From NCBI GenBank assembly GCA_021413925.1, contig JAIOPL010000015.1, positions 41,409 to 105,408 of the forward strand: a DNA stretch of 64,000 nucleotides. Reading direction: 5' to 3'. Below, in pieces: positions 1,142 to 23,873 of the stretch (positions are counted from its first letter, which is position 1; every line of letters begins with the position of its first letter). The stretch comes from Verrucomicrobiota bacterium (GTDB lineage: Bacteria; Verrucomicrobiota; Verrucomicrobiia; Chthoniobacterales; UBA6821). The translations under genes were made by a program, and so were the position numbers. The notes beneath the pieces are model-generated. The model saw nothing but the letters and a program-made list of their open reading frames with translations. It ran no database searches and was not told the DNA's origin.

Positions 1142-1552
1142 GACTCATCCTTGCAAACTGGTGGCCCCGTTCTATCGCCGCTCGTTATCTGATATCGCCG
1201 TTGCTCATCCCTGCATAACCGTTCATCTGCCCAGTTCGACCATTGGCAGAAAATGCTTCAGGGTGGCTATTTTCCTCGTGAGATTCAGTCTGAGAGAGAC
1301 TGGCTGGTCTCATCGCAGCGCCGAGCTGAGTTGATGTCCCTCATGTATTGAGAATGACCTCGATTCGACACCATGGGTAGCCACCGGAGGCTTTTATCGC
1401 GTAGTCACCATCCCCGCTCACAACGACATTTTTGCCATCCATACGAACCGATTGCCGTTCGACGAAAAACGGCTTTTCAGATGTCATGAAAAAGTCTCTA
1501 CCTGTACGACGAAACAACACTTCACCTCTTAGTCCCACTTAGCCCAAAAACC

Positions 1553-2566
1553 ATGAAAACAATGCTCCCACGCACACTCCTCACCATCCTCGCTCTGAGC
1601 GCTTCGTCGCTCATTGGCACTACTTCCCTCCATGCATTTGTGAAGCCTACCGAAGAGGACGGCCCAAAGCTTCCTCCTATCTGGATGAAGGCAGGCCCTC
1701 AGGAGCGTCTGAAGGCCATCCGCGCCGCAGAGCTTGATGGCGATCGCCTCCTCGCCGAGCGCGTCTATGGCCTCATGGTCGACGCCGACACCAGCGTGCA
1801 GGATCTTGCCCTCCAGAGCGATGCAGTGAAGGGAGCCGTCGAGGCCACCCTCGTTGGCGCGATCACTGAGGGTGAGCCCGAGTTCAAGGATGACGGACAG
1901 GTCCAGGTAGCCCGCGCCGTGAAGATTCAGGAGATCACTCGCACACTCAGCCGTGTTATCCAGAGCAAGAAGCTCGAGGACGGATCGATCGTCACCACCT
2001 CTGACAAATCCAACGTGAATAAGGATGTGAAGGACAAAGTCCTTGATGTCATGGGTAATGCCGCGCTCCCCGGCTCCGAGGGTCAGCAGAAGATCATGGC
2101 CAAGCGTGCCGCCGAGATGGATGCCTACCGCCGCCTCGCAGGTCGCATGATGGGGGTTAAGATCTCCGGCACCACCACCGTCAAGGACATGGCCCTCGAG
2201 AATGACAAGATCCTCGCCAGCCTCTCCCAGACGCTGAAGTCCGCCACCCCTACCGCCATCAAGTACAGCAAGAGCGACGGCACCTGTGCAGTCACCATGG
2301 AGGTGAAGGTCGCCGACGTCATCCGTACTATTCAGCACTACTCCAAGAACGGCGGCGGCAAGACCGAGATCAAAGACGAGATCGAGACCAAGACCTTCTC
2401 AGAGACCGGTAACGGAGCCATGCGCCCCGCAGCCGATCCTAATGCTCCCAAGATCGCCGGCAGCGTCACCTCCGATTCCCCCTCCAGTGGTGGTGGAAGT
2501 GAACCCTTCTACGAGACCAAGGCCGTGCTGAAGGAAGTCGTCCAGACCGGCACCATCGCCCAGTAA
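1553..2566 (+). CDS. Exported protein with repeated LPP20-like modules
   Basis: Signal peptide MKTMLPRTLLTILALSASSLIGTTSLHA. Repeated pattern A-x-R-x-A-E-x-D-x-x-R-x-LAE/AGR-x-x-G-x-x-V/I (RAAELDGDRLLAERVYGLMV; KRAAEMDAYRRLAGRMMGVKI) is typical of LPP20/FlgO-type periplasmic modules. Confidence 0.65.
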   Translation: MKTMLPRTLLTILALSASSLIGTTSLHAFVKPTEEDGPKLPPIWMKAGPQERLKAIRAAELDGDRLLAERVYGLMVDADTSVQDLALQSDAVKGAVEATLVGAITEGEPEFKDDGQVQVARAVKIQEITRTLSRVIQSKKLEDGSIVTTSDKSNVNKDVKDKVLDVMGNAALPGSEGQQKIMAKRAAEMDAYRRLAGRMMGVKISGTTTVKDMALENDKILASLSQTLKSATPTAIKYSKSDGTCAVTMEVKVADVIRTIQHYSKNGGGKTEIKDEIETKTFSETGNGAMRPAADPNAPKIAGSVTSDSPSSGGGSEPFYETKAVLKEVVQTGTIAQ

Positions 2567-2588
2567 GGGGTCCTCTACATTTCAGAAA

Positions 2589-2903
2589 ATGAAGGGAGCA
2601 TATTCCACAGTATCCCTGCTTGCGGCATTGGCCCTCTCGGCTTGTGCCAGCCAGCAGGGCCCTCGCCCAGTGGCAACTATTAAGGGAGCCTATTACGACA
2701 CCCAGGTAGTCTCTAGCGGCCCAGTGCCTGCTGACGATGCCGCAATGAAGCAGAAACCGGGCACCGTTGTCTCGAAGAGGACAGGCTCAGCTACCTCCAA
2801 GACACAGGGCAACGATACCGAGGTGAATTCGACCGAGACCACGACAGTTGTTGGGTCATCCGCTGTGGCCGCTCCGGACAGCGAGGTGAAGATCAGCCAA
2901 TAG
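2589..2903 (+). CDS. Small lipoprotein
   Basis: Signal peptide with lipobox LALSAC, then a Ser/Thr-rich mature part. Lies 22 nt downstream of the previous gene. Confidence 0.6.
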   Translation: MKGAYSTVSLLAALALSACASQQGPRPVATIKGAYYDTQVVSSGPVPADDAAMKQKPGTVVSKRTGSATSKTQGNDTEVNSTETTTVVGSSAVAAPDSEVKISQ

Positions 2904-2997
2904 GCCACCCGTCATGACCCCCTGCAAGCCATTCTCCCGCAGCCGTAACGAATGCCTAGCAACGGCTGGGAAAGCAATCGCGGGGAACGAGGATGCT

Positions 2998-3237
2998 CTA
3001 AAGTTCGGAAAGGATCTCTTCCTTAGAGACGCCCTTGTGGGTGGCGACCAGCCTCAGGATGGAGTTCAGCGTTCCGATGCGCAGAAATCCGTGGGCTGGG
3101 ATCGGCATTCGCTGATGACTCGGATCTTCCGTCTGCAGGATCACATGGCTGCCGACTTGGTGCACGATGGCGTAACCCCAGTGCTTGCACAGGTGTTTTG
3201 CCAGGTCATTCCCAGCAAGATCTCTCGGCAGCTTCAT
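2998..3237 (-). CDS. hicA: HicA-family mRNA interferase toxin
   Basis: 79 aa: MKLPRDLAGNDLAKHLCKHWGYAIVHQVGSHVILQ.... It has the HicA/YcfA pattern including the GSH motif, and sits directly downstream of a HicB-like gene. Confidence 0.8.
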   Translation of the reverse strand: MKLPRDLAGNDLAKHLCKHWGYAIVHQVGSHVILQTEDPSHQRMPIPAHGFLRIGTLNSILRLVATHKGVSKEEILSEL

Positions 3238-3255
3238 CAGCGAGGAGAGGGGAGC

Positions 3256-3471
3256 CTAGGCGAAGGCAAAGCTCTCGTCGCGGACCAGATGCAGCCTGAT
3301 GCGGCTTGGAGCCGAACCGAGAGCATCGAAGAAGTATCCTCGCACGGCCTCATCGACTGCAGCACGCATCGCGGCCCAGTCGTCACCCTGAGTCACGATT
3401 GGTTCCGTCAGGCATTCGGCGACATAGCCGCCATCCGCTTCCTGCGTCACCTCAAAGATCAGCTCCTTCAT
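3256..3471 (-). CDS. hicB: HicB-family antitoxin (UPF0150-like)
   Basis: Start moved to the internal ATG (3471..3469). Sequence MKELIFEVTQEADGGYVAECLTEPIVTQGDDWAAMRAAVDEAV matches the HicB N-terminal fold pattern. 18 nt gap to hicA. Confidence 0.72.
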   Translation of the reverse strand: MKELIFEVTQEADGGYVAECLTEPIVTQGDDWAAMRAAVDEAVRGYFFDALGSAPSRIRLHLVRDESFAFA

Positions 3472-3563
3472 AGGAGATTTCTTAACCCTCTTTCCATACA
3501 ACAGCAACCACTCTTCTTTCCCATCCCTCCTCTGCGTCTTTGCGCGAGTTAAATGTTTTCATC

Positions 3564-4967
3564 ATGATCCCCATGCCCCGCATCTCCAGATCCCCCCGGT
3601 TCCCCATCTTCCAACTGCTAACTCCAATCTTCTTGGGCGCCATCGCTCTCCAAGCAGGAGTGCTGGACGACGACTCCGGCCCTGCCAAGCCATCAGCCCC
3701 CGCATCATCCTCATCTGCTGTATTACCAACAGTCCAACAGCCTAACAGCCCAACAGCCTCGGCCCCTCCTGCCTCCCAGCCTGTTTCTGAAAAGGCCGTC
3801 CCTTCGACTGTCTCCCCCCATAACCTATCACCTAATTCCCATACTCCTGCGAAGCACGCCCCCACCACCGACCTCAGCAGCGTCCCCGACGCCTCCTCAG
3901 TTTCAGCCCCTAACAGCCTTCAGTCTAAACCGCTTCAGCCGGCTCGATCCTCCGGATCGAGCGGCGACCCCTACCTCTCCCTAGCCGAGGCCCTTGCCAA
4001 TGCCGCAGGTGGGAATGGGAAGGTGAATGTCGGCGTCGGGAACTTCCTCTACGAGGACACCGATCTCCTCTCTCCCTACTCGGCCATGTTGAAGGACGAG
4101 CTCTCCATGGGCCTCTCCAAGGAGGGGAAATTCACCGTCATTACCCGCGAGCGCATGGCAGACCTCCAGAACGAGGGCAAGTTCCAGGGCAAGGACATCG
4201 TCGAACCCGGCACCGAGGCTAAGAAGGTCCAGATCGAGGGAGTCCAGGGCATCATCCGTGGCCGCTTCTACTATCAGGCTCCTAACCTTACCATCTACGC
4301 CGAGATCGCCTACCTCGACGGGGGAGAGGTTCATAAGGTTAAGGTCGTCATCCCCTCCTCAGAGGTAGCCGCCCGCATCTGGCCCGCCGATACCGGCAAG
4401 CAATCCCGCCCCGAAGTAGCCATCGCCCCACAGGCCGTCAAGGAGAGCACCGCCTCCATTCAGGACATCGAGAGCAAGGTTCGCAAGGTCGAGAAGAACT
4501 TCCCCCTCGAGATCGCCACCGTTGATGGGAAGCGCGGCTACGCCGAGGGAGAGACCGTCTCCTTCCGCTGCCGCTCCGGACACGACGCCTACATCGCAGT
4601 CATCGACCACCAAATCGACGGCTCCGAGATATTGCTCTTCCCCAATGCCTTCAGCAGCGAGAATTACATCCCCGCAGGGAAGGCCATCGACGTCCCCGGA
4701 ACCGTGAAGCACGGCTTTGAGATCCAGATCTCACCGCCTTTCGGCAGCGATGTCGTTCAGGTCATCGCCTGCACGAAGAAGGAAGATCTTGCGAAAATCA
4801 CCAGTTCCTTCCCTAGCTCCACACAGGCGAATCCCTACGCTGTCCGCACCCGTGGTATGAAGGTCGTTGCCGTGGACGAGGCTCAGAAGAATACCTCCAT
4901 GGAGAGCCAACCTCCACAGTGGTCAGAGGATCACATTGTGGTCAGCACCTATCCGAAGGTGAATTGA
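3564..4967 (+). CDS. Exported CsgG/LpoB-like plus DUF4384 domain protein
   Basis: ATG at 3564 gives a signal peptide (MIPMPRISRSPRFPIFQLLTPIFLGAIALQA), followed by a Pro/Ser-rich linker. The next segment GNFLYEDTDLLSPYSAMLKDELSMGLSKEGKFTVITRERMADLQNE is CsgG/LpoB-like. The C-terminal FRCRSGHDAYIAVIDHQIDGSEILLFPN...FEIQISPPFGSDVVQVIAC matches the DUF4384 pattern, a domain known to co-occur with caspase domains. Confidence 0.7.
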   Translation: MIPMPRISRSPRFPIFQLLTPIFLGAIALQAGVLDDDSGPAKPSAPASSSSAVLPTVQQPNSPTASAPPASQPVSEKAVPSTVSPHNLSPNSHTPAKHAPTTDLSSVPDASSVSAPNSLQSKPLQPARSSGSSGDPYLSLAEALANAAGGNGKVNVGVGNFLYEDTDLLSPYSAMLKDELSMGLSKEGKFTVITRERMADLQNEGKFQGKDIVEPGTEAKKVQIEGVQGIIRGRFYYQAPNLTIYAEIAYLDGGEVHKVKVVIPSSEVAARIWPADTGKQSRPEVAIAPQAVKESTASIQDIESKVRKVEKNFPLEIATVDGKRGYAEGETVSFRCRSGHDAYIAVIDHQIDGSEILLFPNAFSSENYIPAGKAIDVPGTVKHGFEIQISPPFGSDVVQVIACTKKEDLAKITSSFPSSTQANPYAVRTRGMKVVAVDEAQKNTSMESQPPQWSEDHIVVSTYPKVN

Positions 4968-4970
4968 GTC

Positions 4971-5393
4971 ATGGATGGAGAAAATATGAAAATAACGGTT
5001 AAGCTAGATAATAGTGAAACCGTAATGGTCATACTAAGTGCAAGTGATAGTGAGTTAGGTTATTCAGTAGTTGCTAAAACAGAAAAAGGTGAGGAAATAG
5101 GAAAATTTGAATTCAGGCATATAGAAGACGAGCGACATGAATATTTAATGTTATGCTGCATGTTTATTGAAGGATGGGCAGGTGTATTTAAGCGAAAGGG
5201 AATCGGACGAAATATTCTGATTTATGCTAAGGAATTTTATGGTCTCCCAATTGTAGTTGCGCCAAATGATGGAATTAGAAGGGAAGATGGCTGTCATTTA
5301 ACGGGGGATGGCCCAATATTTGTAAACCAAATGATTCGGGAAAGAATTATTTCTCAAGATTTCTCTCCAGAAAGTGATTGCGATGAATGGTAA
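4971..5393 (+). CDS. Small AT-rich cytoplasmic protein, possible minimal GNAT fold
   Basis: 140 aa with no signal peptide. FKRKGIGRNIL resembles the GNAT motif A (R/Q-x-x-G-x-G/A). Stop at 5391..5393 is 4 nt before the ATG of the caspase-like gene. GC content is much lower than in the flanks. Confidence 0.45.
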   Translation: MDGENMKITVKLDNSETVMVILSASDSELGYSVVAKTEKGEEIGKFEFRHIEDERHEYLMLCCMFIEGWAGVFKRKGIGRNILIYAKEFYGLPIVVAPNDGIRREDGCHLTGDGPIFVNQMIRERIISQDFSPESDCDEW

Positions 5394-5397
5394 TAAT

Positions 5398-8300
5398 ATG
5401 AATAAAAACAGTTTATTAATAATTATTGCACTCTTTTTATTGCTAGGCCAGAGCCTAGCGAAAGTCCCCACCCAAGAACAGTGCCGGCAAGAGGCTTCAG
5501 CTATAGTTGATCAGTTGATCAAAACTGAAGTAGCGCGCGATATTGATTCCCAAATCAAACTCTTTGCGCCTGAGGTAACTCAAGATGGAAAGTCCATTAA
5601 GAGAGAACAACTTAGAAAAGAAAATCTATCCTACTACAAACGATGGCCAGTGGCCCAGTGGTTACTACTAAAGCCAGTGGAGGTAAAGCAACTGACTCCG
5701 GATTCATTTGAGGTCATCTATGAAGCGTCCTTTCGGGTTGAAAGTCCAGAGCGGGGAAAGTGGAGCGGGGGAACATTGAAATCCACATTAAAAATAGTTA
5801 AAATTGATGAAAGATACCTGATTCAAGGAACAGAGGATCATGTTTTAGGAAACATCAAGGGCGAATTACAGAGAGATCCGTCCGATCGTGAATTTAAAAC
5901 TACATCCTCAAAGGAAAATCTAAAGCATGATCCAATCGTGGTTTACCAATCAGGTCTCTGTAGAGAACCAACTTTTGCGAAGAATGACTCAAATGGAATA
6001 TATGAGATTTTTGGGAATCAAAATGAATGGTGTCTTGTAGATAAAGTCAGCGGTGTTATAATAGGTAAAGATATAGCAAAAGGTAATGGATATATCGATG
6101 CGAGATTTAGTCCAGATTCTAAAAAACTACTTTTATTTTTATCGGGCCATCATGGCGGCCCCAATTTCTTCGAGCTGCTGGATGTAGATTCTTTCGAGAC
6201 GGATGATTACCTAATGCCTTGTCCTAATATAGAGAATAGGAAAGACTCAAAAGTATTTGGTGAATACAAACTGTCACTTTCAAGTCAAGACGATGGCAAT
6301 TATAGAAGTGTTGCTAAATGGGAAAAGGGAGAACATAAGCTAGGGGTAGATGTTTTCCAGGATGGCAGAAGATCTGCATTAGGAATTACTAATTACCCTA
6401 TAAACACCACTCCCTCTGAACAAAAAATTATTCTATTAGATAGTGTAAAGTATTTAGTAAGCCTTAAAAACAAAAAGACATCTGTTTTTAATGTAGATAA
6501 TATCAGCAAGGTTTTAAGTGTCGATGGAGATGAATTTCGGGTTGACGGAACTACAAAATCAATATCTATACGAAATGGTAGTAGCATAGTCTGTTACAGT
6601 CTGATTACTGGTAATGTCCTGTGGAAAACGGAAATAGAAACATCACCAGAAACTTTTGATTTTCATGATCAATTCGTATTCATAGTAGAAAACAACCAAG
6701 TGTCTTGTCTGAATGTCGTCACGGGGTACAAAGTTTGGATAAAAAAATTAGATGTGGATTCAAACGAAAAAATAAATCAAGTAAAAGTATCTCCTAATAA
6801 AAAGTACATTGTATTATCTTCTGGCGGCTATTTCGGTCATATTTACGTATTAAATTGTCAATCAGGAGATATGCTTTGGAAAGCAGACTCATCAGGAATT
6901 AATGCTTTTAGCAATGATAGTACGCTGCTTTCCTATTCTGTACATGCGGGCTTTACCGATGTTATTATTAAAGTTATTAAGACGTCCGAATGGAAGCCTA
7001 GTGCTGAATATTCTGAAGAAGTAAATGTTCCAGCATATGGTTTCGGTGATATGGTTTTTTCTGATAATTCTAAATCGATTGTTTTCGCGCTTACTGCTTT
7101 TGATAAAATTAGAATTGCTAATCCCAAAATCGGCAATTCTGCTGCATCAAGGTTTCAGGATAAATCTAAATATATTATCAATGATCCTGGTTACTATAAA
7201 AATATCATTTATGACGAAAAATCTAGGCTTCTTGCTGCGTCAGACTCCGAAGGATTCTCAAATATATGGAGCCTATCCTCTGGGCATCTAACTGCGCGAA
7301 TTCTTATAGATGATTTTGCTAATCCATTAAGTTTAACTCCCGAAGGTTATTATCTTACATTAGGAAGTGCTCATAAATGGGTTGGGTTTAGGTTTGATGG
7401 AAGAGGTTATCCTCTCGAGCAATTCGACCTGCGCCTGAATCGTCCTGACATTGTTCTGGAACGATTGGGAGCGCCGAAGGAAGCGGTAGAAACCGCAAAA
7501 TCCCTTCGCGAAAAGCGTCTGAAGCGCATGGGGGTAACTGAGGAAATGCTCAAGCCGGACTTCCATCTCCCTGAGCTTCAGATCGTGGGTGAGGTTCCTG
7601 CCACGACTCCCAAGGATCAGCTCGACCTCCAGATCAAGGCGACGGACGACAAGTATCCCCTTGATCGCCTCCGGGTCTACGTGAACAACGTCCCGGTGAA
7701 TGGCCGCGATGGGGAGCTCCTCCGTGACCAGAAAACGCAATCCCTAGAAAAGACCATCCCGATCAAGCTGGCCGCTGGTCGCAACAAGATCCAGGTCTCC
7801 GTCCTCAACAGCGCCGGTGCGGAATCCCTCTATGCCAATGCCGAGGTGAACTGCACGGCAGAGCGACCGAAGCCCAAGCTCTACGCCGTGGCTCTAGGCG
7901 TCTCCCAGTATGACCGCCCCGAGTGGTGCCTGAAATACGCCGCCAAGGACGCAACTGACCTGATCGGGAAGCTTAAAGCCAAGGCCGGTTCCTCCTACAG
8001 CGAGGTGAAGCCCATGCTCCTGACCGATAAAGAGGTGACCAAGGAAAGCGCCACCAAGATCAAGGAGTTCCTCTCCGGGGCTACCATCGACGATACGGTC
8101 CTGATCTTTATGGCTGGTCACGGCCTCCTAGATGACAAATACGACTACTACTTCGGCACCACCGACATCGATCCGGCCAGACCGTCCGATCGAGGTATGA
8201 CCTACGAGGCGATCGACAACATCCTCGCCTAAGTACCCTCCCTCAAAAAGGCCCTCCTGATGGACACCTGCCACGCCGGAGAACTGGATGACGATGAGAA

Positions 8301-8763
8301 GAAGGAACTCGCCGCATCCGACGGAGCGGCAACCCCCTCCGCAATCCCAGCTTCAGACACCAACTCATCTCCAATGGCAGGCAAAGTCGCCATGCGATCC
8401 ATCGGCACCCGTGGAATGCAGGTGAAAGCCGTGCAAGGAGCCAAAGGGAAGAGCGACTGGTACGAGAAGCTCCAGGACATGTTCGTCGATCTTCGCAGGG
8501 GGAGCGGAGCCACCGTGATCAGCTCCTCTCAAGGAGCCGAGTACGCCTTCGAGAGCAGCGAGCAGTCCAACGGCCTCTTCACCTACTCCCTCATGGAAGC
8601 CCTTGATGGCAAAGCAACACCGAACAAGGAGGGCCAGATCACCATCAGCAGCATCGGCGACTACGTCAAAAAACGCGTCCAGGACCTCACCAAGGGCAAG
8701 CAAAACCCCAACCTCCGAGGAGTGAATTTAGAAGAGGACTTCGCCCTCAGCTCAACGAAATGA
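5398..8763 (+). pseudogene. Exported beta-propeller-like / caspase-like (peptidase C14) protein interrupted by an in-frame TAA at 8230..8232
   Basis: Signal peptide MNKNSLLIIIALFLLLGQSLA, then PQQ/WD40-like repeats (GNVLWKTE, GYKVWIKK, GDMLWKAD), then the constant module. Track ORFs 5374..8232 and 8260..8763 are in the same frame (8260-5374=2886). The intact paralogues read ...ILAEVPSLKK... whereas this copy reads ...ILA*VPSLKK..., i.e. gcc TAA gta versus gcc GAA gta. Confidence 0.7.
7408..8763 (+). repeat. Constant caspase effector module, copy 1 (of 3)
   Basis: Starts at codons YPLEQFDLRLNRPDIVL. Shares long identical nucleotide runs with 16021.. and 22487.. (for example gggtctacgtgaacaacgtccc). 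Confidence 0.9.
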
Positions 8764-13490: not shown

Positions 13491-13585
13491 AAAAGGGCGT
13501 CCAGGACCTCACCAAGGGCAAACAAAACCCCAACCTCCAAGGCGGGAACCTCGAAGAAGACTTCACGCTCAGCGCAACGAAATGA
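13490..13585 (+). pseudogene. Orphan 3'-end remnant of a caspase-module gene
   Basis: Reads KGVQDLTKGKQNPNLQGGNLEEDFTLSATK* in its own frame. Homologous to 8668..8763 (KRVQDLTKGKQNPNLRGVNLEEDFALSSTK*). It ends in the same acgaaATGAaaa stop/start junction. Confidence 0.75.
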
Positions 13586-16500: not shown

Positions 16501-18024
16501 GTAGCCCTGGGAGTCTCCCAGTATGACCGCCCCGAGTGGTGCCTGAAATACGCTGCCAAGGATGCCACCGACCTGATTGGCAAGCTCAAGGCCAAGTCCG
16601 GATCCAGCTACAGCGAGGTGAAGCCCCTGCTCCTGACTGATAAAGAGGTCACCAAGGAAAGCGCCGCCAAGATCAAGGAGTTCCTCTCCGGGGCTACCAT
16701 CGACGATACGGTCCTCATCTTCATGGCCGGCCACGGACTGCTGGATGACAAGTACGACTACTACTTCGGCACGACCGACATCGATCCCGCCAAGCCATCT
16801 GAGAGAGGTATGCCCTACGAGGCGATCGACACCATCCTTGCCGAAGTACCCTCCCTCAAAAAGGCCCTCCTCATGGATACCTGCCATGCTGGAGAACTCG
16901 ACGAAGACGAGAAGAAGGATCTCGCCGCATCAGATGGATCGGCAACACCCGCCGCGATCCCTGCTGCAGACACCAACTCATCTCCAATGGCTGGCAAGGT
17001 CGCCATGCGAGCCATCGGCACCCGAGGGATGAGTGTAAAGGCGCTCCAAGGAGCTAAGGGGAAGAGCGACTGGTACGAGAAGCTCCAGGACATGTTTGTC
17101 GATCTGCGTAGAGGCAGCGGAGCCACGGTGATCTCCTCATCCCAGGGAGCTGAATACGCCTTCGAGAGTAGCGAGCAGTCCAACGGCCTCTTCACCTACT
17201 CGCTCATGGAGGCCCTCGACGGGAAAGCCACCCCGAACAAGGATGGCCAGATCACCATCAGCAGCATCGGCGACTACGTCAAAAAACGCGTCCAAGACCT
17301 CACCAAAGGCAAACAGAACCCCAACCTCCGTGGTGTGAACCTAGAAGAAGACTTCAGTTTGGGCAAAGCCGAGAACTTTTTGCCATCTTCATCCACTTCC
17401 TCATTATCTGATGAGACTTCAAAGCTGTCCGAAGAGATGCTGCCAGACCCTTCGGCTCTTCCCAAAGCGGGTTCCTTAGAAACTGATAGCTCGTTTTCTC
17501 AGTCTGCTACAGGTCACAATAAGGTCCTAGAATTCGACGAGGCTCTGAGCCGTGCCGATGCAGGTGATGCCTACGCACAGGGGGTCCTCTCGATTTACTA
17601 TGGTCTTGGATACAAGACCGAGAAGGAACTTGCCAAGGCCGTCGAGTATGCCTCGAAGTCTGCGGGCCAGAATAATCCGCTAGGTCAGTATCAGCTTGGC
17701 GTCCTGACCGCAGGAGGGGAGGGGGTTGAGAAAGATCCGGAGAAAGGCAAGTCGCTCAAGGTAGAATCCATCGAGGGACTGAACACAATGCCCGATGACC
17801 CCTACGCCCTGGCGTCGCTGGGAGCGATGGCGCTTCGAGGAGAGGGAGTGGCTAAAGACATTAAGATGGCCGCCAAGCTCTACAGAAGTTCAGCAGATCT
17901 CGGATATGCACCCGCCCAGATCCTCTATTCGATGATGCTTGCGAGGGGGGTGGGAGTCCCCCCAGATGCTTCTGCCTCACGGAAATACGCCTCCATGGCC
18001 GAGGCGCAGAACTATCAACCATAG
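13582..18024 (+). CDS. Exported WD40-like / caspase-like protein with C-terminal Sel1 repeats
   Basis: True start is the ATG at 13582 (MKKRLISLILGVTLVAGIGI signal peptide). The track start at 13378 reads through the remnant and is rejected. The N-terminal ~810 aa are extremely AT-rich and N/K/I-rich, with WD40-like VIRIWSLETGKLIRT. The constant module starts at 16021. The C-terminal AGDAYAQGVLSIYYGLGY...PLGQYQLGVL...ALASLGAMALRGEGVAKD...YAPAQILYSMMLARGVGV are Sel1-like repeats. Confidence 0.85.
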   Translation: MKKRLISLILGVTLVAGIGITKLDLQAADAQPANKNEEKNGANKKIISVDDEPICYRAAFGEVKPPVDETEDNSNKNKKQGYELIPSCDVISGKYKKPEGAIVEIGPINAKIIRKGSKEYQKIMDGTLGKTVIGKEDINDNSIEVVPQLIDSHKIISGYTDNKNKIVVTGIYGNSKVIRIWSLETGKLIRTISLMAGMDSQAENYDFIRKQNIARVYPYGDGKSAVIVRYQERAGGLSNALECTVTDLNTGNPTVEARGSSFRFDDDISDVQKKAGFMNVDFDKNTKLLVSVGGDMIKYDILKDRSELEKRLGKFLGSAYLDEVKIDPQKIGFDGGISLVAVDIKGSFNASVLARSSREKYLVLNVDLRNKQVISTQNINTYISENKNISSNIYSFINKHNALFSDGVQTLIKDGNTPLIISNKNKKSLLNIAGETSDYNCIVSNKNESLVVLYNDKKSDIMIIDQKSLIVKKINLPEGYTHKYVFFNKSCTQFYLATFDSVSGDTSFYSFNDKYEISKTAQYQLQSGNDCIELEANVSSSGRFFSCSLDNGREVSSYIVDSKSNSLLLHNNGPVCFMNNKDVAICAEKNILSEYDCANSSREISFNVIKDKVYNVAFFPLDEFHIKNEKYKTLDLQKSRNSDFNNVDWSPFRIDASPNGAAWSVSYKYHKYKPDDINNRPFLILNYKNKFYFDELFQDKLNVFISDDGSICRASHDVITPNMHWRWVSPYRNQEENPFKYNNITWLSDINKYYHLSSLGMITKIDFNQLKPKVDYSIFPSNNGNVVFVLKDKSYMLLGKNNSTVAFADKLKSYPLEQFDLRLNRPDIVLDRLGAPKEAVEAAKSLREKRLKRMGVTEEMLKPDFHLPELQIVGDVPATTSKDLLDLQIKATDDKYPLDRLRVYVNNVPVNGRDGELLRDQKTQSFEKTIPIKLAAGRNKIQLSVLNSAGAESLYANAEVNCTAERPKPMLYAVALGVSQYDRPEWCLKYAAKDATDLIGKLKAKSGSSYSEVKPLLLTDKEVTKESAAKIKEFLSGATIDDTVLIFMAGHGLLDDKYDYYFGTTDIDPAKPSERGMPYEAIDTILAEVPSLKKALLMDTCHAGELDEDEKKDLAASDGSATPAAIPAADTNSSPMAGKVAMRAIGTRGMSVKALQGAKGKSDWYEKLQDMFVDLRRGSGATVISSSQGAEYAFESSEQSNGLFTYSLMEALDGKATPNKDGQITISSIGDYVKKRVQDLTKGKQNPNLRGVNLEEDFSLGKAENFLPSSSTSSLSDETSKLSEEMLPDPSALPKAGSLETDSSFSQSATGHNKVLEFDEALSRADAGDAYAQGVLSIYYGLGYKTEKELAKAVEYASKSAGQNNPLGQYQLGVLTAGGEGVEKDPEKGKSLKVESIEGLNTMPDDPYALASLGAMALRGEGVAKDIKMAAKLYRSSADLGYAPAQILYSMMLARGVGVPPDASASRKYASMAEAQNYQP
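16021..17355 (+). repeat. Constant caspase effector module, copy 2 (of 3)
   Basis: I counted 15 amino-acid substitutions by eye over the 274 residues aligned to copy 1 upstream of its stop. The catalytic motifs FMAGHGLLD and LLMDTCHAGE are intact. Confidence 0.9.
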
Positions 18025-18063
18025 TCAGACAGAAAAAACTCTAACCCCATACCCCTAAAACCC

Positions 18064-18702
18064 ATGAAAACGACGATCACCAAATCCCTACTACTCGCCG
18101 CCCTTATGGGAGGCTTGAATACTCATACCCTCCGCGCCGATGAGACCGCCGATCTGATGCAGACAATCCTGCAGGCCTCCCCAACAGAGAGGGCCAAGGC
18201 ACAAAAGATGGTATCTTCCTCGCCACGTAAATCTTCAGGATCCAAGAAGGCTACGGTTTCTAATTCTTCAATGGTGCCAAACCTAGGTATTCCCGAGAGC
18301 CAGCTCTTAGAGGTGAACTCAAAGTTCCCCAAGGACTTTGTAGGGAAATACGTTTATGGCCCTGTCAGTTTTAAATTAATTAGACAGGAGGGAAATGATG
18401 TCTGCATAGGGTTTACTGCCAAAGGATACCGTATGTTCGATCTCTACACTCGGGATCCTCAAGTCATTCAAGCCTTCAGTAGGTGTGGTTGGGGCGCCAA
18501 GTTTACAATTCCGAAAGATTGCCCTCTACGTGTTTTAACGAAAAATCTTATGACTTATGTGGTGAGATTACCATTTGATCAAGACACTACCACTCATTCA
18601 CTAGGAGAAATCTTTCAACAGGATGGCAGGGATATGCAGAATATTCTTCAAGATACTGCGAATCGCGTTCGTAGTGACATGAATGGAATCCCCAATCAGT
18701 AA
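18064..18702 (+). CDS. Exported hypothetical protein
   Basis: Signal peptide MKTTITKSLLLAALMGGLNTHTLRA. No family recognised. Confidence 0.55.
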   Translation: MKTTITKSLLLAALMGGLNTHTLRADETADLMQTILQASPTERAKAQKMVSSSPRKSSGSKKATVSNSSMVPNLGIPESQLLEVNSKFPKDFVGKYVYGPVSFKLIRQEGNDVCIGFTAKGYRMFDLYTRDPQVIQAFSRCGWGAKFTIPKDCPLRVLTKNLMTYVVRLPFDQDTTTHSLGEIFQQDGRDMQNILQDTANRVRSDMNGIPNQ

Positions 18703-18722
18703 AAAGCAGGCAATTCTCATCA

Positions 18723-19943
18723 ATGAAAACTCACCAATCCATCATCCTTGCCCTTGTTGCCGCTACAGCACTGGGATTCACATCAATACACGCCGCCCCA
18801 GTCACCGCTGAGGGGCGCACCGCTGGGGACTCGACCGCCGCCCGTGAACAAGCTCTCACCGATGCCCTTCGTGAGGCTGTGCGCCTCGGGGCCGGGGTGA
18901 ATATCGCCAGCCAGAGCCAGGCCAGCAACTTCGCCCTCGATTATGACAGGGTCTTTGCTGCCGCATTCGGCTACGTGAAGAGTTATAAGGTGATCGAGTC
19001 CGGCATGGGCAAGGACGGGATCTACCATGTGAAGGTGGAGGCAGAGGTCTCTCCCGGCGATCCGAACATGAACAACACCATGGCCCTGAAGCAACTCGTG
19101 GCCCTGAAGGGCTCTCCCCGTATCGCCCTAGACATCCAGGAGAACATCACAGGCGTCCCTCCGAACTCCGGCTACGCCCAGGCATGGTTCGAGGAGGCGG
19201 CCAAGGACCTCCAGCTGAATATCGTCGATGTGGGCATGGCCCGTAATCAGGAGATGAAGCTCTCCCGCCGCGACGAGGCGCTTGGGAATGCGAACTCCGC
19301 GAACTTCCGCAACAAGGACATCACCCAGAAGGCCGACTTCATCATCCAGGGCAAGGTGACCGGCCGCTACGAGGGCCAGCAGAGCATGTACGGGGGGAAC
19401 CCCCAGCACGTCTTCGGAATGAGCGCCGACCTCCGGGCCGTCCGCCCTGAGACCGGCGAGGTGGTTGCCTCCGCCACCATCCATCCTAACAACAATCTCG
19501 ACAGCGACCAAGGCTCCCCCGAGATGGCCGCCAAAGACATTCTCTTCAAGCTCCTCACCGGCCGCGAGTCCAAGGGCCAACCAGGAGCCATCGGCCTCTT
19601 CCGCAAGATCTTCGCCCGCTGGTCCTCCGAGCTCGACCTAGGCCGCATGGTCCGCGTCGAGATCGTGAAGATCGACCAGCCCACCCTCACCGCGATGGAG
19701 GAGAAGTTGAAGGCCGACCCCCACATCAGCGGCGTCTGGCAGAGGGAGTTCGACGCCCAGGCCAGCACCTTCCTCGACCTTGAGACGCGCTTAAACTCTG
19801 CCGAGCTGACCAAATCTGTGACCGACGCCTCAGGAGGAGCCTACGGCATCGACCACGGAACGGAGAACTACCTCCTCTTCGTGAAGGGCGGCTCCGGATC
19901 AGCCGAGAAGAAAGGCTTCTTCGGGAAAATGTTCGGGAATTGA
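18723..19943 (+). CDS. Exported protein with N-terminal LPP20-like module
   Basis: Signal peptide MKTHQSIILALVAATALGFTSIHA. AREQALTDALREAVRLGAGVNIASQSQ resembles the LPP20/FlgO-type motif also seen in 1553..2566. Confidence 0.6.
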   Translation: MKTHQSIILALVAATALGFTSIHAAPVTAEGRTAGDSTAAREQALTDALREAVRLGAGVNIASQSQASNFALDYDRVFAAAFGYVKSYKVIESGMGKDGIYHVKVEAEVSPGDPNMNNTMALKQLVALKGSPRIALDIQENITGVPPNSGYAQAWFEEAAKDLQLNIVDVGMARNQEMKLSRRDEALGNANSANFRNKDITQKADFIIQGKVTGRYEGQQSMYGGNPQHVFGMSADLRAVRPETGEVVASATIHPNNNLDSDQGSPEMAAKDILFKLLTGRESKGQPGAIGLFRKIFARWSSELDLGRMVRVEIVKIDQPTLTAMEEKLKADPHISGVWQREFDAQASTFLDLETRLNSAELTKSVTDASGGAYGIDHGTENYLLFVKGGSGSAEKKGFFGKMFGN

Positions 19944-19999
19944 GGGAATAGGGGGGGTAGCCACAAGATGCACAAGAGACACAAAACATAATTAAAAAC

Positions 20000-20356
20000 A
20001 TGAACGATTCAATTTTCCCTGATTTTATTGAGAAAAGTTACATCGATGTTTCCATTCCCTTAAAAATTCCTGGTGTCAAAACGGAATTCCATTTAGGCGA
20101 AGGTAGTCCACTTGGTAAGGGAATATTGGTTTTTAATACCCGAGTTACTTATCAGTTCATTAGTGCAAAAAAAGAATCAGAAACACAGACAGAAGTTATT
20201 CTGAAAAGCAATGAACTCGGAAAACTAAAATCTAAAGATGAAACTTTTACGGTAGTTGGTAGAAATGTTCATGAGAGAGCTAGAGATCTTTGTTCGCAGA
20301 TAAGAAAAATACATGGAGATGATAGCATGATCTCCACGCGAACTATAATGAACTAG
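20000..20356 (+). CDS. Small AT-rich cytoplasmic hypothetical protein
   Basis: 118 aa with no signal peptide. Ends 12 nt upstream of the caspase-like gene 20369. Low GC content. Confidence 0.4.
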   Translation: MNDSIFPDFIEKSYIDVSIPLKIPGVKTEFHLGEGSPLGKGILVFNTRVTYQFISAKKESETQTEVILKSNELGKLKSKDETFTVVGRNVHERARDLCSQIRKIHGDDSMISTRTIMN

Positions 20357-20368
20357 TCAATAGTACTA

Positions 20369-23300
20369 ATGATAAAAAGATATTTCAATATCGGATTATT
20401 TATAATAATATTCTTTGTTAATTTTGCCACCGCCCAAGTCCCTACCCAAGAGCAATGCCAGCAGGCCGATGCCCAGCTGAATCAGGTCTATCAGCAGCTC
20501 AGGGGGACTCTGAGTACGGATCAGAAACAGCAGTTGAAGCTAGCCCAGAGGGATTGGATCAAGCAGAGGGATGCATTTGTTGCTGCTAATCCGGGTAATC
20601 CTCAAGGAGCGCTCTATCAAGCAACGATGCAGAGGGCACAACAACTAGGATTAATTCTCGGAAAGACGCCACAAAATGGAATGCCCTCGTCAGCGGAGAG
20701 CATTTCCAAGATGCCACTCGATATTCGAATCGATGAGAAAGCGGTTTATCCGACTCCACAGGTCAATGATCAGAAATGGATAATAAGTACCACTTCCTCT
20801 GATAATGAAAGCCTGATTGCAGTAGCTCATCCAGAACTGGTGAAAATCTGGACAAAAAATTATGAATCGCTCGTAAGAAGTATCAATTGCAGAGCCGATG
20901 CGCTTAGAATTATTCCAGGAACGCATATTCTTCTAACCATTGGAAAACCTTTGGATGCTGAAAATACCACCACGGGCACAGAGATCAATGCAATGTGTCC
21001 CGTTGCGACATACTGGAACATTGAGGATGGATCCAAGTTGGCGAGTTTTACCCTCGTGTGTCCAAAAGGGGTAGATGTTCCCTATATTACGGGAGATTGC
21101 CATCACGTTATCTTTTGCAATAATGAAAGAACGGACTTGGATCGTGTGACCTTCTACGAAACCAAGTTGCCCTTGGTAGACCTTGAAGATCGTTCCTTAA
21201 AATCCTCCGGAGATATCCGTTTTGCTGACCCTCAGAAAAAGTGGGGAGACATATCAATTAATGTGGTGGGAAATCACGATAAGATTAAAAGCCGATTCCC
21301 GGAAATAGACGGTTCTCTCGATAAAAGTGGAAGAATTAGTAGTGATCTCATTAATGAATCCGCAAAAAATCTACGCAATTCTGGAGAGATTCTTATAGAA
21401 AATCTCTCGATCAATCAGGATGGGACAAAATTCTGCATCATGGGAAAGGGGCTCGTTCGTATTGTGGAATTCGAAATTGGAGTAGCAAAAGAAATCAAAA
21501 TTCCCGATCAATGGATTGCTATTAGTGGTGCCTTTTCTTCTGATGGAAGTCATCTTGCTGTGCTGGCATCTCCAGCAGACGCGGGACAACAGCAAGAGGG
21601 AAACATCGTCTTCAAGGGATTCGTTATCGATCTCAACAATCAGACGGTGCTATTTGAGAGTACAATTCCAGCGGGAATTGTTCCCGCTGTGTGTTCAGGC
21701 AAACCTGAAATCCAATGGATCAGAGATAAAATATATATCTCCGATGGTGCAATCTTTGATTCGAAATTCTCACTCCAACAGCAAATCAAGGGGCTTTTTC
21801 TACCAACTTCCCCCTTGAAATCAGAGGTTCTTGTTAAAGCGGTCGAAGCTGGCAAGACGTCACCCCGCGGAAAGCCAACGGTCTTATCACTTGCGCTCTA
21901 CGACCTCAATAATCTTGAGTCTGCTTCAGATTTGAAGCTGAAAGATTCAGAAAATGGTGATGGTGCATTGCCTTTTTACGGAGATCCCACATGCCCAAAC
22001 CTGTCTCCATTTGATATCTCGCCGAATTGCGACGCGATCATCAAGTCTTGGAAGTATTGGAGGGGTGGCGGAGGGCTTTGTTTTGCGAATTCCGCAATCA
22101 ACCAGTCTTTTGAGAACCTGCTATCTGGCAGGATGCCAACATTTGCCTCTTTTCTTCCAAACGGAAATATTCTGTGTGTTGAATTGACCGAAAAAGGTAG
22201 TGAAACACAGATTGTCATTATAGACCCAACTCAACCTCAAAAAGCATTATCAGTTCTCAAAACGCCGATTATCTTTTCATTAAAGATATCTCCTGATCGA
22301 AAGTCATTTTACGGGATTCAGAAGAGCGGATTCGTGGTTCGATATGAGATCCGTGATAATGCTGTGCTGCCCTGCGCGGAGTACCTATCAAACAGTCGTG
22401 ACTCTTTGGTAATTACTCCAGAATTCATTTATCTTTCGCATGGCAACCCCAACAATCTCCTTCGTTTCACCAAAAAAGCAGAGTCCTACCCACTTGAGCA
22501 ATTCGATCTTCGCCTGAACCGCCCCGACATCGTTTTAGAGCGATTGGGGGCTCCGAAGGAGGCCATCGAGACGGCTAAATCCCTCCGCGACAAACGCCTG
22601 AAGCGCATGGGAGTCACCGAGGAAATGCTGAAGCCTGACTTCCATCTCCCTGAGCTCCAAGTCGTGGGCGAGGTACCTGCGACAACTGCTAAGGTTCAGC
22701 TTGATCTCCAGATCAAGGCCACCGATGACAAGTATCCCCTCGATCGTCTGCGGGTCTACGTGAACAACGTCCCTGTGAATGGCCGTGACGGGGAACTCCT
22801 CCGTGATCAGAAGACCCAGACCTTAGAGAAAACCATCCCGATCAAGCTTGCCTCTGGCCGCAATAAGATCCAGGTCTCCGTCCTCAACAGCGCCGGTGCG
22901 GAATCCCTCTATGCCAATGCCGAGTTGAACTGCACGGCTGAACGTCCCAAGCCCAAGCTCTACGCCGTGTCCCTCGGAGTCTCCCAGTACGACCGCCCCG
23001 AGTGGTGCCTCAAGTACGCTGCCAAGGACGCCACTGACCTGATCAACAAGCTCAAGGAGAAGGCCAGCACCTCCTACTCAGAGGTGAAGCCCCTGCTTCT
23101 CACGGACAAGGAGGTCACCAAGGATAGCGTCGCCAAGATCAAGGAGTTCCTCTCGGGGGCAACCATTGATGACACCGTTCTGATCTTCATGGCGGGCCAC
23201 GGCCTCCTCGATGACAAATACGACTACTACTTCGGCACTACTGACATCGACCCGGCCAAGCCATCAGAGCGTGGGATGCCCTACGAGGCGATCGACAACA

Positions 23301-23842
23301 TCCTCGCTGAGGTTCCATCGCTCAAGAAAGCCCTCCTCATGGATACCTGCCACGCCGGAGAACTGGATGACGATGAGAAGAAGGAACTCGCCGCATCCGA
23401 CGGAGCGGCAACCCCCTCCGCAATCCCAGCTTCAGACACCAACTCATCTCCAATGGCTGGCAAAGTCGCCATGCGTTCCATCGGCACACGTGGGATGAGC
23501 GTAAAGGCCGTGGAAGGAGCCAAGGGCAAGAGCGACTGGTACGAGAAGCTCCAGGATATGTTCGTCGATCTTCGCAGGGGAAGCGGAGCCACGGTCATCT
23601 CCTCCTCACAGGGAGCGGAATACGCCTTCGAGAGTAGTGAACAATCCAACGGCCTCTTCACCTACGCCCTCATGGAAGCCCTTGATGGCAAAGCCACCCC
23701 CAACAAAGAGGGCCAAATCAACATCAGCAGCATCGGAGACTACGTCAAAAAACGCGTCCAAGACCTCACCAAGGGAAAACAAAACCCCAACCTCCGAGGA
23801 GTAAATCTAGAAGAAGACTTTGTTCTGGGAACAGCCAAGTGA
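20369..23842 (+). CDS. Exported DUF1311(LprI)-like / WD40-like / caspase-like protein
   Basis: Signal peptide MIKRYFNIGLFIIIFFVNFATA. QCQQADAQLNQVYQQLRG...LKLAQRDWIKQRDAF matches the DUF1311 pattern. A repeat-rich middle region is followed by the intact constant module from 22487, carrying FMAGHGLLD and LLMDTCHAGE. Confidence 0.85.
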   Translation: MIKRYFNIGLFIIIFFVNFATAQVPTQEQCQQADAQLNQVYQQLRGTLSTDQKQQLKLAQRDWIKQRDAFVAANPGNPQGALYQATMQRAQQLGLILGKTPQNGMPSSAESISKMPLDIRIDEKAVYPTPQVNDQKWIISTTSSDNESLIAVAHPELVKIWTKNYESLVRSINCRADALRIIPGTHILLTIGKPLDAENTTTGTEINAMCPVATYWNIEDGSKLASFTLVCPKGVDVPYITGDCHHVIFCNNERTDLDRVTFYETKLPLVDLEDRSLKSSGDIRFADPQKKWGDISINVVGNHDKIKSRFPEIDGSLDKSGRISSDLINESAKNLRNSGEILIENLSINQDGTKFCIMGKGLVRIVEFEIGVAKEIKIPDQWIAISGAFSSDGSHLAVLASPADAGQQQEGNIVFKGFVIDLNNQTVLFESTIPAGIVPAVCSGKPEIQWIRDKIYISDGAIFDSKFSLQQQIKGLFLPTSPLKSEVLVKAVEAGKTSPRGKPTVLSLALYDLNNLESASDLKLKDSENGDGALPFYGDPTCPNLSPFDISPNCDAIIKSWKYWRGGGGLCFANSAINQSFENLLSGRMPTFASFLPNGNILCVELTEKGSETQIVIIDPTQPQKALSVLKTPIIFSLKISPDRKSFYGIQKSGFVVRYEIRDNAVLPCAEYLSNSRDSLVITPEFIYLSHGNPNNLLRFTKKAESYPLEQFDLRLNRPDIVLERLGAPKEAIETAKSLRDKRLKRMGVTEEMLKPDFHLPELQVVGEVPATTAKVQLDLQIKATDDKYPLDRLRVYVNNVPVNGRDGELLRDQKTQTLEKTIPIKLASGRNKIQVSVLNSAGAESLYANAELNCTAERPKPKLYAVSLGVSQYDRPEWCLKYAAKDATDLINKLKEKASTSYSEVKPLLLTDKEVTKDSVAKIKEFLSGATIDDTVLIFMAGHGLLDDKYDYYFGTTDIDPAKPSERGMPYEAIDNILAEVPSLKKALLMDTCHAGELDDDEKKELAASDGAATPSAIPASDTNSSPMAGKVAMRSIGTRGMSVKAVEGAKGKSDWYEKLQDMFVDLRRGSGATVISSSQGAEYAFESSEQSNGLFTYALMEALDGKATPNKEGQINISSIGDYVKKRVQDLTKGKQNPNLRGVNLEEDFVLGTAK
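22487..23842 (+). repeat. Constant caspase effector module, copy 3 (of 3)
   Basis: Colinear with copies 1 and 2 from YPLEQFDLRLNRPDIVLERLG through NLRGVNLEEDF. Confidence 0.9.
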
Positions 23843-23873
23843 CACGGCACTACTTTTCGGTTATTATTTTATC

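Follow-up and report, generated by a model that had tools for sequence, protein, structure and literature searches.

Introduction

Most discussion of caspase homologues in bacteria treats them as cytoplasmic effectors of death or defence. Exported prokaryotic metacaspases were noted in 2012, with N-terminal helices as possible signal peptides and with extracellular domains (PMC3501461); being exported is thus nothing new in itself. DUF4384 or a PilP-like ring domain is among the C-terminal domain types of Csx30, the substrate of a CRISPR-associated CHAT protease (bioRxiv 10.1101/2022.08.17.504292), and some sensors of conflict systems are predicted to face the periplasm (bioRxiv 10.1101/2023.09.22.558884). 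On the envelope side, a common fold unites FlgP, Lpp20 and FlgT, and rings associated with the outer membrane are formed by some of these proteins (PMC12222027). Here we describe a locus of a freshwater Verrucomicrobia genome in which genes for four giant caspase-like proteins (genes or giants 1 to 4) lie in a run of co-directional open reading frames (ORFs) among genes for predicted envelope proteins. Coordinates are positions in the 64,000-nt stretch that was analysed, hereafter the window, and all core genes are listed on the + strand (Table 1). An earlier reading of the window from its sequence alone (the sequence-only reading) had proposed an extracytoplasmic caspase-type protease system; this is still the best reading of the locus, and none of the three outcomes that would have overturned it was observed, although export is not a novelty in itself and the array of giants is not a fixed one.

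Results

Caspase-fold proteases accompany an envelope gene set

We scanned metagenomes with an alignment of the DUF4384 protein of the locus and retrieved 76 loci, 32 of which were at least 10 kb long. A peptidase C14 or CHAT domain was encoded within 10 kb of the DUF4384 gene in 27 of these 32 loci, and 52 of the 54 such domains lay on the same strand as the DUF4384 gene. The anchor genes themselves ranged from 39% to 98% identity across loci, and a homologue of the LPP20-like protein (LPP20a) was present in 25 of the 32 under a looser screen. Caspase-fold proteases are thus also found when loci are selected by the DUF4384 protein, without regard to the caspase. The association of apparently exported caspase-fold proteases with this envelope gene set is conserved and co-oriented, and the neighbourhood singled out by the sequence-only reading is not plausibly a product of chance.

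A scan of one genome per species yielded eight loci: one in a Pirellula genome and the other seven in metagenome-assembled genomes of Verrucomicrobiota. In loci L002-L005, genes for homologues of the LPP20-like, DUF4384 and FlgT-like proteins adjoin giants, and matching gene sets occur in L003, L004, L010, L014, L016 and L018. L018 and L019 carry genes for LprI, C14, LprI, LPP20-like, DUF4384, FlgT-like and LprI-C14 proteins; L010 and L014-L016 encode TPR-CHAT proteins (Pfam CHAT, 1e-48 to 1e-54), in some loci together with C14 genes. The LPP20-like homologue adjoins the DUF4384 gene in L003, L004, L014, L016-L019 and L022, and the FlgT-like gene in L020 and L022. The association weakens with distance; in Nannocystis, a DUF4384 gene two genes upstream of a homologous giant is the only member of the set. 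In L021, a FlgT-like/TIR fusion (P0338, 586 aa; 693..2453) lies beside a PLDc_2 gene, HicA and a Ser/Thr kinase with FHA; the envelope fold is the same here, but the effectors differ.

The giants and their neighbours are predicted to be exported

The sequence-only reading had assigned Sec-type signal peptides to all four giants and had called their envelope neighbours exported too. We called signal peptides by a heuristic that requires a charged stretch at the N-terminus, a core of 15-27 hydrophobic residues that lacks charges, and small residues at -3 and -1, and signal-peptide-like N-termini were indeed found on the four giants and on the proteins at 1553, 2589, 3564, 18064 and 18723, and on none of four nearby controls. 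No later membrane-spanning segment was evident in any of the giants or these five neighbours. Similar N-termini were present on homologous giants from seven other Verrucomicrobiota loci and one Calditrichota locus, as well as on the TPR-CHAT proteins that replace giants in sister strains. By the same heuristic, no signal peptide was seen on the small ORFs 4971..5393 and 20000..20356.

Domain content points the same way. LprI proteins, one of whose domains is found in giant 4, are periplasmic and disulphide-bonded and are candidate immunity proteins against effectors of type VI secretion systems (T6SS) (PMC7933661, PMC12135965). By analogy, this domain, the FGE domain of giant 2 (whose best family matches are the periplasmic GldK/PorK and PvdO) and the LpoB- and FlgT-like folds of the neighbours would lend independent support to export.

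A constant C14 module carries the catalytic dyad

Pfam Peptidase_C14 (PF00656) matched genes 2, 3 and 4 at 33.7, 44.4 and 47.4 bits (gathering cut-off, 21.4), with E values from 4e-8 for gene 2 to 2.6e-12 for gene 4, the latter being identical to MCE9588126.1, annotated 'caspase family protein'. The N-terminal fragment of gene 1 alone gave no C14 match in Pfam. Consistent with the core described by the sequence-only reading, the His of AGHG and the Cys of DTCHAG (DTCQ, not DTCH, in gene 2) align with SGHG and DSCHSG of Arabidopsis metacaspase-4 (6w8s), in an alignment that is itself weak (E 0.44), and G-H-G and D-x-C-H-x-G-E were at least 90% conserved among 22 aligned homologues. The dyad, thus at the catalytic positions, is His 8119/Cys 8269 in gene 1, His 12096/Cys 12246 in gene 2, His 16732/Cys 16882 in gene 3 and His 23198/Cys 23348 in gene 4. 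Giants 2 to 4 are Peptidase_C14 members by profile and putative proteases.

Genes 2, 3 and 4 are intact, co-directional single ORFs. In gene 1, an in-frame TAA (8230-8232; …ILA*VPSLKKALLMDTCH…) falls between the catalytic His and Cys, at a position where genes 3 and 4 have GAA, and in the public record (locus tags K8R57_073xx) the annotation is limited to the N-terminal 944 aa. Uninterrupted relatives of 1126 aa, with 97% identity, exist elsewhere, so the TAA is either a strain-specific nonsense allele or an assembly error. The single architecture proposed for four co-directional giants therefore holds for three intact C14 ORFs, but the first gene is split by a stop and the module of the second is divergent.

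Self-comparison of the window revealed a module of ~1335 nt common to genes 1, 3 and 4, with 85-87% nucleotide and 92-94% amino acid identity. The constant unit comprises 452 aa (a helical linker, a beta-rich spacer and the C14 domain), not the 274 aa first delimited. Pairwise dS among the three modules was 0.71-0.78, which makes them old paralogs or imported alleles rather than recent duplicates; recent tandem duplication and gene conversion are ruled out by the same values. A dN/dS of 0.05-0.06 indicates that the modules are under strong purifying selection, and the interrupted module of gene 1 shows no sign of decay, with purifying selection still visible. The module of gene 2 (about 11400..12899) is only 32% identical to that of gene 4 and the others. 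Profile-profile comparison of the beta-rich spacer with DUF4384 gave a probability of 0.03%, and we rejected that assignment. Beyond the window, 'caspase family proteins' of Myxococcota, Calditrichota, Bacteroidota and Acidobacteriota contain the full 452-aa unit with 35-45% identity, in most cases preceded by WD40 repeats; the database entries of these homologues are fragments, and the underlying ORFs are also giants.

Heads and tails differ from giant to giant

In front of the constant unit, the giants have little in common. BLASTP found only the signal peptide and ~50 residues shared between genes 1 and 4, and we discarded the idea that the four heads are relatives. The head of gene 1 matched a PQQ_2/BamB-type beta-propeller in Pfam. 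The head of gene 3 gave a WD40/PQQ-like match at E 0.06 only, and apart from the LprI/DUF1311 domain directly after the N-terminus of gene 4 (Pfam, 2.3e-10), no significant family match was found in the heads of genes 2, 3 and 4 with Pfam searched to E 1. The WD40/PQQ-like description given to all four heads is thus verified for gene 1 alone. No NTPase domain was found in the giants, with the heads searched to the same threshold.

In a search of 1.84 billion representative proteins, the 812-aa head of gene 3 (GC 0.325) had no match at E <1e-10 outside its own 90%-identity cluster. Over 31 aa (residues 682-712; 15625..15717), this head shares 84% identity with the N-terminal end of P0361, an unrelated protein of 324 aa that resembles a GT2 glycosyltransferase by eye only; the match hints that the head may be a mosaic of foreign low-GC DNA.

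The C-terminal additions named by the sequence-only reading were both recovered by Pfam: FGE-sulfatase in gene 2 (5.6e-26, 92.2 bits, about 12927..13463), with best NCBIfam matches to GldK/PorK and PvdO well under their cut-offs, and Sel1 in gene 3. We also considered retroelement diversification of the lectin-like domain of gene 2 and set it aside: no second copy of 12900..13490, and hence no template repeat, exists in the window, and no reverse transcriptase was found among the window ORFs scanned.

Heads and whole proteases are exchanged within a hypervariable slot

Comparison with the sister locus L016 delimits a slot in which the giants reside. The window is 97.8% identical to L016 over 1..2897, 87% over 3011..4968 and 90% over the FlgT-like gene, and there is no similarity across 4969..18721. 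In L016, the slot holds a TPR-CHAT-Sel1 protein and small ORFs, and an LprI-TPR-CHAT protein follows the FlgT-like gene. The battery of arrayed giants is present in the window, but it is one state of a hypervariable slot that is occupied by TPR-CHAT proteins in sister strains, and not a fixed arrangement.

The array itself is also rearranged between close relatives. Orthologues of gene 2 stand at a different array position in L001 and L002; in L002, whose FlgT-like protein is 98% identical, the orthologue follows the equivalent of gene 4 instead of preceding gene 3. Gene 2 is flanked in the window by 99-nt direct repeats (8668..8766 and 13490..13588; 87% identical), each consisting of a module 3' end and the junction to the next gene. 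Similar module-end remnants are found on both sides of the gene 2 orthologue in L002, and also in L010, and remnants of module ends or of the DUF4384 C-terminus mark cassette borders in L002, L003, L010, L014, L016 and L018. The Sel1 tail of gene 3 is missing from a 95%-identical relative, while the C-terminus of an L010 TPR-CHAT protein matches it with 81% identity. A tail common to C14 and CHAT genes indicates that the protease body was exchanged in front of a resident tail.

Heads and modules also differ in composition. GC content at third codon positions (GC3) was 0.29, 0.26 and 0.42 in the heads of genes 1, 3 and 4, against 0.70-0.73 in their modules and 0.64-0.81 in the envelope genes; the contrast was weaker in gene 2 (head 0.51, module 0.65). 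It recurs in sister loci and not in distant ones. Orthologous heads were 31-35% identical, whereas the modules attached to them were 79-89% identical. The simplest reading of these patterns is repeated import of foreign heads onto a resident module. Taken together, the comparisons indicate a constrained constant effector, with heads and whole proteases exchanged between close strains.

The small ORFs directly upstream of giants 1 and 4 (4971..5393 and 20000..20356) share the composition of the head that follows (GC3, 0.26 and 0.28). They had no homologue in the first 22 loci fetched, nor in Pfam, PADLOC or NCBIfam; they could be passengers, chaperones or inhibitors.

The envelope proteins resemble ring-forming and tethered families

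The 3564..4967 ORF is open from a TTG at 3540, with the publicly annotated start at 3564, and its product is 100% identical to MCE9588117.1. The protein consists of a signal peptide, a Ser/Pro-rich linker of ~110 aa, an LpoB/TolB-N-like alpha/beta domain and a DUF4384 domain (PF14326) matched at 64.9 bits (cut-off, 27; profile positions 2-80 of 81; E 7e-18) that models as an Ig-like beta-sandwich. Its Pfam CsgG match (E 1e-4; 22.1 bits, cut-off 20.8) covers only profile positions 39-97 of 210. For the AlphaFold2 (AF2) model (pLDDT 70), the best Foldseek match was LpoB (1e-7), followed by TolB, GNA1162 and PelC, and no CsgG entry was among the 50 best matches. No lipobox was found in its N-terminus. 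Of the CsgG-like/DUF4384 designation, the DUF4384 part is therefore confirmed, but the CsgG part models as LpoB/TolB-N/GNA1162-like. We also rejected the idea that this protein is a secretion channel exporting the giants: an LpoB-type fold with no lipobox and no CsgG match does not support such a role, and with its ~110 Ser/Pro-rich residues before the fold the layout recalls the tethered regulator LpoB rather than a channel.

Two proteins had been described as LPP20-like. For the first, 1553..2566, the Pfam LPP20 match (E 3e-4; 21.6 bits) stays under the cut-off of 25.9 and there is no lipobox, which leaves a faint family resemblance in place of that identity. The second, 18723..19943, has a weak sub-threshold match to FlgT_N and none to LPP20 in Pfam; it is 90-98% identical in L002, L010 and L016. 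Its AF2 model (pLDDT 86.6, pTM 0.80) matched FlgT (3w1e, 2e-9) and the LPHT ring (8z5n, 1.5e-9) over ~400 alignment columns, the whole length of the protein, with further Foldseek matches to the CsgG pre-pore, HpaA, GNA1162, LpoB and PelC. TM-scores were low (0.20-0.28), which we attribute to a different domain orientation. As modelled, the protein is a three-domain, FlgT-like one in fold only: no flagellar family was found among the ~50 window ORFs scanned, most of at least 150 aa.

The small lipoprotein at 2589..2903 has the lipobox expected of it and no family match in Pfam or NCBIfam, and is 96% identical in L016 and L017. The 18064..18702 protein had no family match in Pfam searches, including one at a relaxed threshold; a 69%-identical homologue occupies the same position in L010.

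Genomic context

Toxin-antitoxin and abortive-infection genes (HicA, AbiEii, AbiGi, PIN) lie in and beside the locus. An AbiEii nucleotidyltransferase toxin gene (24038..24847), 96% identical in L002, directly follows giant 4; no clear AbiEi partner was found, and the 117-aa ORF upstream (23820..24173) has no family match. AbiGi, PIN and KilA-N genes occur in sister loci. HicA is annotated at the same place in L017, and L003 and L004 have no room for it. Genes for LysM and YkuD L,D-transpeptidase proteins stand just downstream of the locus, here and in L010.

The first 1141 nt of the window are 97-99% identical to the region that in L016 and L017 separates the LPP20-like gene from a pair of genes for a MASE1 histidine kinase and a LytTR regulator. 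The 5' end of the kinase probably runs off the window on the minus strand, which would place a two-component system at the flank of the locus. On the other side, 28400..60700 is approximately the extent of a likely integrated mobile island with AAA_17, EVE-GNAT, UmuC, DUF4145, DUF4236, Fic and TrbI genes and an integrase (59316..60728), together with a type I restriction system (hsdR 36252..39647, hsdS, hsdM) in which a Hypoth_Ymh gene and an unknown 1183-aa gene are embedded. A ~320-nt segment occurs in three diverged copies (27930..28249, 62191..62510 and 62856..63169; 68-75% identity), the first inside the YkuD gene and the other two in ORFs at 62026..63299, which together bracket the island. 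There are no tRNA genes in the window that could serve as integration sites. A promoter and terminator scan gave counts below the shuffled expectation and was uninformative.

Table 1. Genes and other features of the locus, with coordinates in the window
Feature	Coordinates	Strand	Remarks
LPP20/FlgP-like predicted exported protein, 337 aa	1553..2566	+	Conserved left flank; sub-threshold Pfam LPP20, signal-peptide-like N-terminus
Small lipoprotein, 104 aa	2589..2903	+	Lipobox LSAC at residue 16
212-aa ORF overlying hicA/hicB	2914..3552	+	Probably spurious
hicA toxin	2998..3237	-	Pfam 1.3e-7; between lipoprotein and DUF4384 gene
hicB-like ORF	3256..3507	-	Opposite strand, beside hicA
DUF4384 protein, predicted exported	3564..4967	+	Anchor gene of the system; Pfam DUF4384 7e-18
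Small low-GC ORF, 140 aa, without signal peptide	4971..5393	+	Travels with gene 1 head cassette; GC3 0.26
Giant 1 (gene 1)	5398..8763	+	Signal peptide, propeller head 5398..7407, constant module 7408..8763; stop-interrupted
Giant 2 (gene 2), 1576 aa	8760..13490	+	Signal peptide, 880-aa head, divergent module, C-terminal FGE-sulfatase/C-type-lectin-like domain
Module-end remnant and gene junction, 99 nt	13490..13588	+	Copy of 8668..8766
Giant 3 (gene 3), 1480 aa	13582..18024	+	Signal peptide, 812-aa head 13582..16017, module 16018..17373, Sel1 tail 17374..18024
Predicted exported protein of unknown family, 212 aa	18064..18702	+	Signal-peptide-like N-terminus
FlgT-like three-domain protein, 406 aa, predicted exported	18723..19943	+	Conserved right flank of variable slot 1
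Small low-GC ORF, 118 aa, without signal peptide	20000..20356	+	Upstream of giant 4; GC3 0.28
Giant 4 (gene 4), 1157 aa	20369..23842	+	Signal peptide, LprI/DUF1311 residues 27-90, head to 22483, module 22484..23842

Discussion

The explanation that we prefer, and to which we give roughly even chances, is that the giants are ligand-activated periplasmic sensor-proteases on an envelope scaffold that serve in surveillance or conflict; the locus would be one state of a conserved, Verrucomicrobiota-centred system at work outside the cytoplasm. The fixed part would consist of a Sec-exported LPP20/FlgP-like protein, a small lipoprotein, a tethered LpoB/TolB-N-like DUF4384 protein and an FlgT-like protein, whose folds form rings or periplasmic scaffolds elsewhere. 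These fixed genes would bracket one or two hypervariable slots, each with at least one exported caspase-fold giant composed of a variable head (a propeller, LprI with further domains, or TPR) and the 452-aa C14 unit or CHAT, in some cases with a C-terminal binding domain (FGE, Sel1). After Sec export, the giants would sit in the periplasm on or near the scaffold, where the head would bind a ligand that is either foreign or a sign of envelope damage. Once bound, the giants would cluster or change conformation, and this would switch on the caspase module in the manner of other sensor-caspase proteins; the active module would cleave envelope targets, with tethered scaffold proteins such as the DUF4384 protein as candidates. 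The outcome could be a defensive, suicidal or signalling response. Recombination anchored on the constant module and the conserved flanks would maintain the diversity of heads. The hypervariability of the slot, the foreign heads, the toxin-antitoxin neighbours, the TIR/PLD variant in L021 and the link from DUF4384 to Csx30 are circumstantial but favour a role in surveillance or conflict.

A more specific form of this proposal, which we regard as speculative and on the whole unlikely, is a periplasmic innate-immune receptor repertoire. Heads would detect threats that enter the periplasm, such as a Bdellovibrio-like predator, a T6SS muramidase, or the lysin or tail of a phage; the module would cut the tethers of a ring-shaped scaffold and so bring about envelope remodelling or altruistic lysis, and foreign head cassettes, taken up in front of the resident effector, would refresh the repertoire. 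If true, such a repertoire would be an extracytoplasmic, NTPase-free counterpart of apoptosome- or NLR-type immunity.

Several observations weigh against the sensor-protease explanation. One of the four giants in this genome is broken, head folds are verified for gene 1 only, and signal peptides were called by a simple heuristic, not by SignalP. A physical association of giants with the scaffold has gene linkage as its only basis, and the linkage itself has exceptions: the LPP20-like/FlgT-like pair occurs without any caspase in L020, and in the Lentisphaerae locus L022 the FlgT-like, DUF4384 and LPP20-like genes are accompanied by a Ser/Thr kinase, FHA and an extracytoplasmic function (ECF) sigma factor instead of caspases. 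The scaffold may thus have a function of its own, and different signalling enzymes may use the envelope set as a general platform. Beside homologous giants outside Verrucomicrobiota (Calditrichota, Bacteroidota and L013, among loci L011-L013) the scaffold genes are absent. The low GC of the heads could reflect fast AT-biased drift of poorly constrained sequence, not import. PADLOC-DB 2.0 returned its generic 'caspase' model only, for genes 3 and 4, with no match for the scaffold proteins. NCBIfam gave only sub-threshold caspase_w_EACC1, GldK and LipL46 matches, and we rejected an assignment to a known anti-phage defence system.

The main rival is envelope housekeeping, which we consider unlikely. 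The giants would then be periplasmic processing or quality-control proteases for cell-wall and outer-membrane components, with heads that select endogenous substrates, and the LpoB-like, LprI and FlgT-like proteins would regulate peptidoglycan or outer-membrane assembly. The DUF4384 protein has the layout of LpoB (a disordered tether and a globular domain), which is also its best structural match; the LprI protein ScwA controls the levels of peptidoglycan enzymes (PMC7933661); the LysM and YkuD genes are close by; and the LPP20-like/FlgT-like pair can exist without caspases. However, a housekeeping role would not lead one to expect a swap between C14 and CHAT in strains whose flanks are 90-98% identical, heads that lack relatives and are of foreign composition, heads far less conserved than their modules, or tolerance of a nonsense allele.

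Two further alternatives seem to us quite improbable. In the first, the giants would be secreted or surface-displayed adhesin-proteases or antagonistic effectors, used in attack on other cells or in feeding, with heads that recognise the surfaces of prey or competitors. Signal peptides (by the heuristic), the lectin-like FGE domain and the Sel1 tail would suit this role, as would a cassette-like diversification resembling that of polymorphic toxin loci and the extracellular, possibly fratricidal role suggested for metacaspases (PMC3501461). Yet neither secretion machinery for the outer membrane nor a sorting signal was found in the locus, the model of the 'CsgG-like' protein is not that of a channel, and no immunity-type gene with a signal peptide accompanies each giant, the small upstream ORFs lacking one; moreover, the variable part is the presumed binding head, whereas in polymorphic toxins it is the enzymatic end.

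The second would make the giants part of a site-1-protease-like relay that passes envelope signals through the MASE1 kinase/LytTR pair or anti-sigma-like partners, akin to Csx29 cleaving Csx30. It draws on the position of that pair directly upstream in L014 and L016, with the left edge of the window nearly identical to that region, on the ECF sigma factor, FHA and kinase genes of the Lentisphaerae locus and on DUF4384 as a C-terminal domain of the membrane-associated Csx30. Against it, the window yielded no substrate that is anti-sigma-like or membrane-spanning, the proteins tested having no later transmembrane segment, and the two-component genes are divergently oriented; such a relay would also overlap with the sensor-protease explanation rather than exclude it. 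Finally, insertion of mobile caspase genes into an unrelated envelope operon, for which one could cite a recombinogenic slot beside toxin-antitoxin genes and a mobile island, is disfavoured and barely credible given the recurrence, shared orientation and range of anchor identities in the metagenomic survey.

What sets the locus apart is an entire caspase-fold family that is apparently outside the cytoplasm, genetically tied to a conserved envelope scaffold and diversifying by head swaps on a constant protease. If the link to the scaffold is functional, it would open a new compartment for caspase-type surveillance in bacteria, give a role to DUF4384, a widespread domain with no assigned function that is also found on a CRISPR protease substrate, and provide a natural set of modular binder-protease fusions. 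Because abundant freshwater Verrucomicrobiota commonly carry the system, it could be relevant to the pressure from phages or predators in lakes. In full-text literature searches, we found no account of a conserved envelope operon in which C14 and CHAT proteases are exchanged in a slot.

Among described systems, the three scaffold proteins resemble, at the level of the fold, FlgT and FlgP of the Vibrio H-ring and basal disc, Helicobacter Lpp20 (PMC12222027), LpoB, TolB-N, GNA1162, PelC and CsgG, whose folds form periplasmic or outer-membrane-associated rings or tethered regulators. Unlike those families, the scaffold has no flagellar genes among the window ORFs scanned, no lipobox on its large proteins and no evident channel-type hairpins, and linkage to proteases has not been described for any of them. 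In NTPase-dependent conflict systems, whose effectors are caspases or trypsins and whose sensors are repeats or lectins (bioRxiv 10.1101/2023.09.22.558884), as here, a variable sensor is joined to a caspase-type effector, sensors diversify rapidly and a lectin-fold (FGE) sensor is used. Here, however, the locus yielded no STAND or MoxR NTPase, the window contains no template repeat of the FGE region such as a diversity-generating retroelement would have, and diversification proceeds by cassette exchange. STAND/NLR-like WD40-caspase proteins differ in a similar way, since the giants have no NACHT/NB-ARC (heads searched to E 1) and begin with signal-peptide-like N-termini.

The type III-E Craspase, in which the TPR-CHAT protease Csx29 cleaves Csx30, is likewise a caspase-fold protease with a repeat-rich sensor part and a partner family with DUF4384 among its C-terminal domain types, and TPR-CHAT proteins occupy the same slot in sister strains. 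In contrast to Craspase, no Cas7-11, CRISPR array, Csx30, Csx31 or RpoE was found in the window, the overlap there being limited to a caspase-fold protease and DUF4384, and the proteases here carry predicted signal peptides; RNA activation of the Craspase type is not plausible for giants outside the cytoplasm. With prokaryotic metacaspases and orthocaspases that bear WD40, TPR, Sel1 or FGE-sulfatase domains (Asplund-Samuelsson et al. 2012, PMC3501461), the giants share the C14 His-Cys core and its association with WD40-like, Sel1, FGE-sulfatase and DUF4384 domains. They differ from these in having no NTPase and in a 452-aa unit that is constant beneath swapped heads, in a defined slot of a conserved envelope operon, with all members apparently exported.

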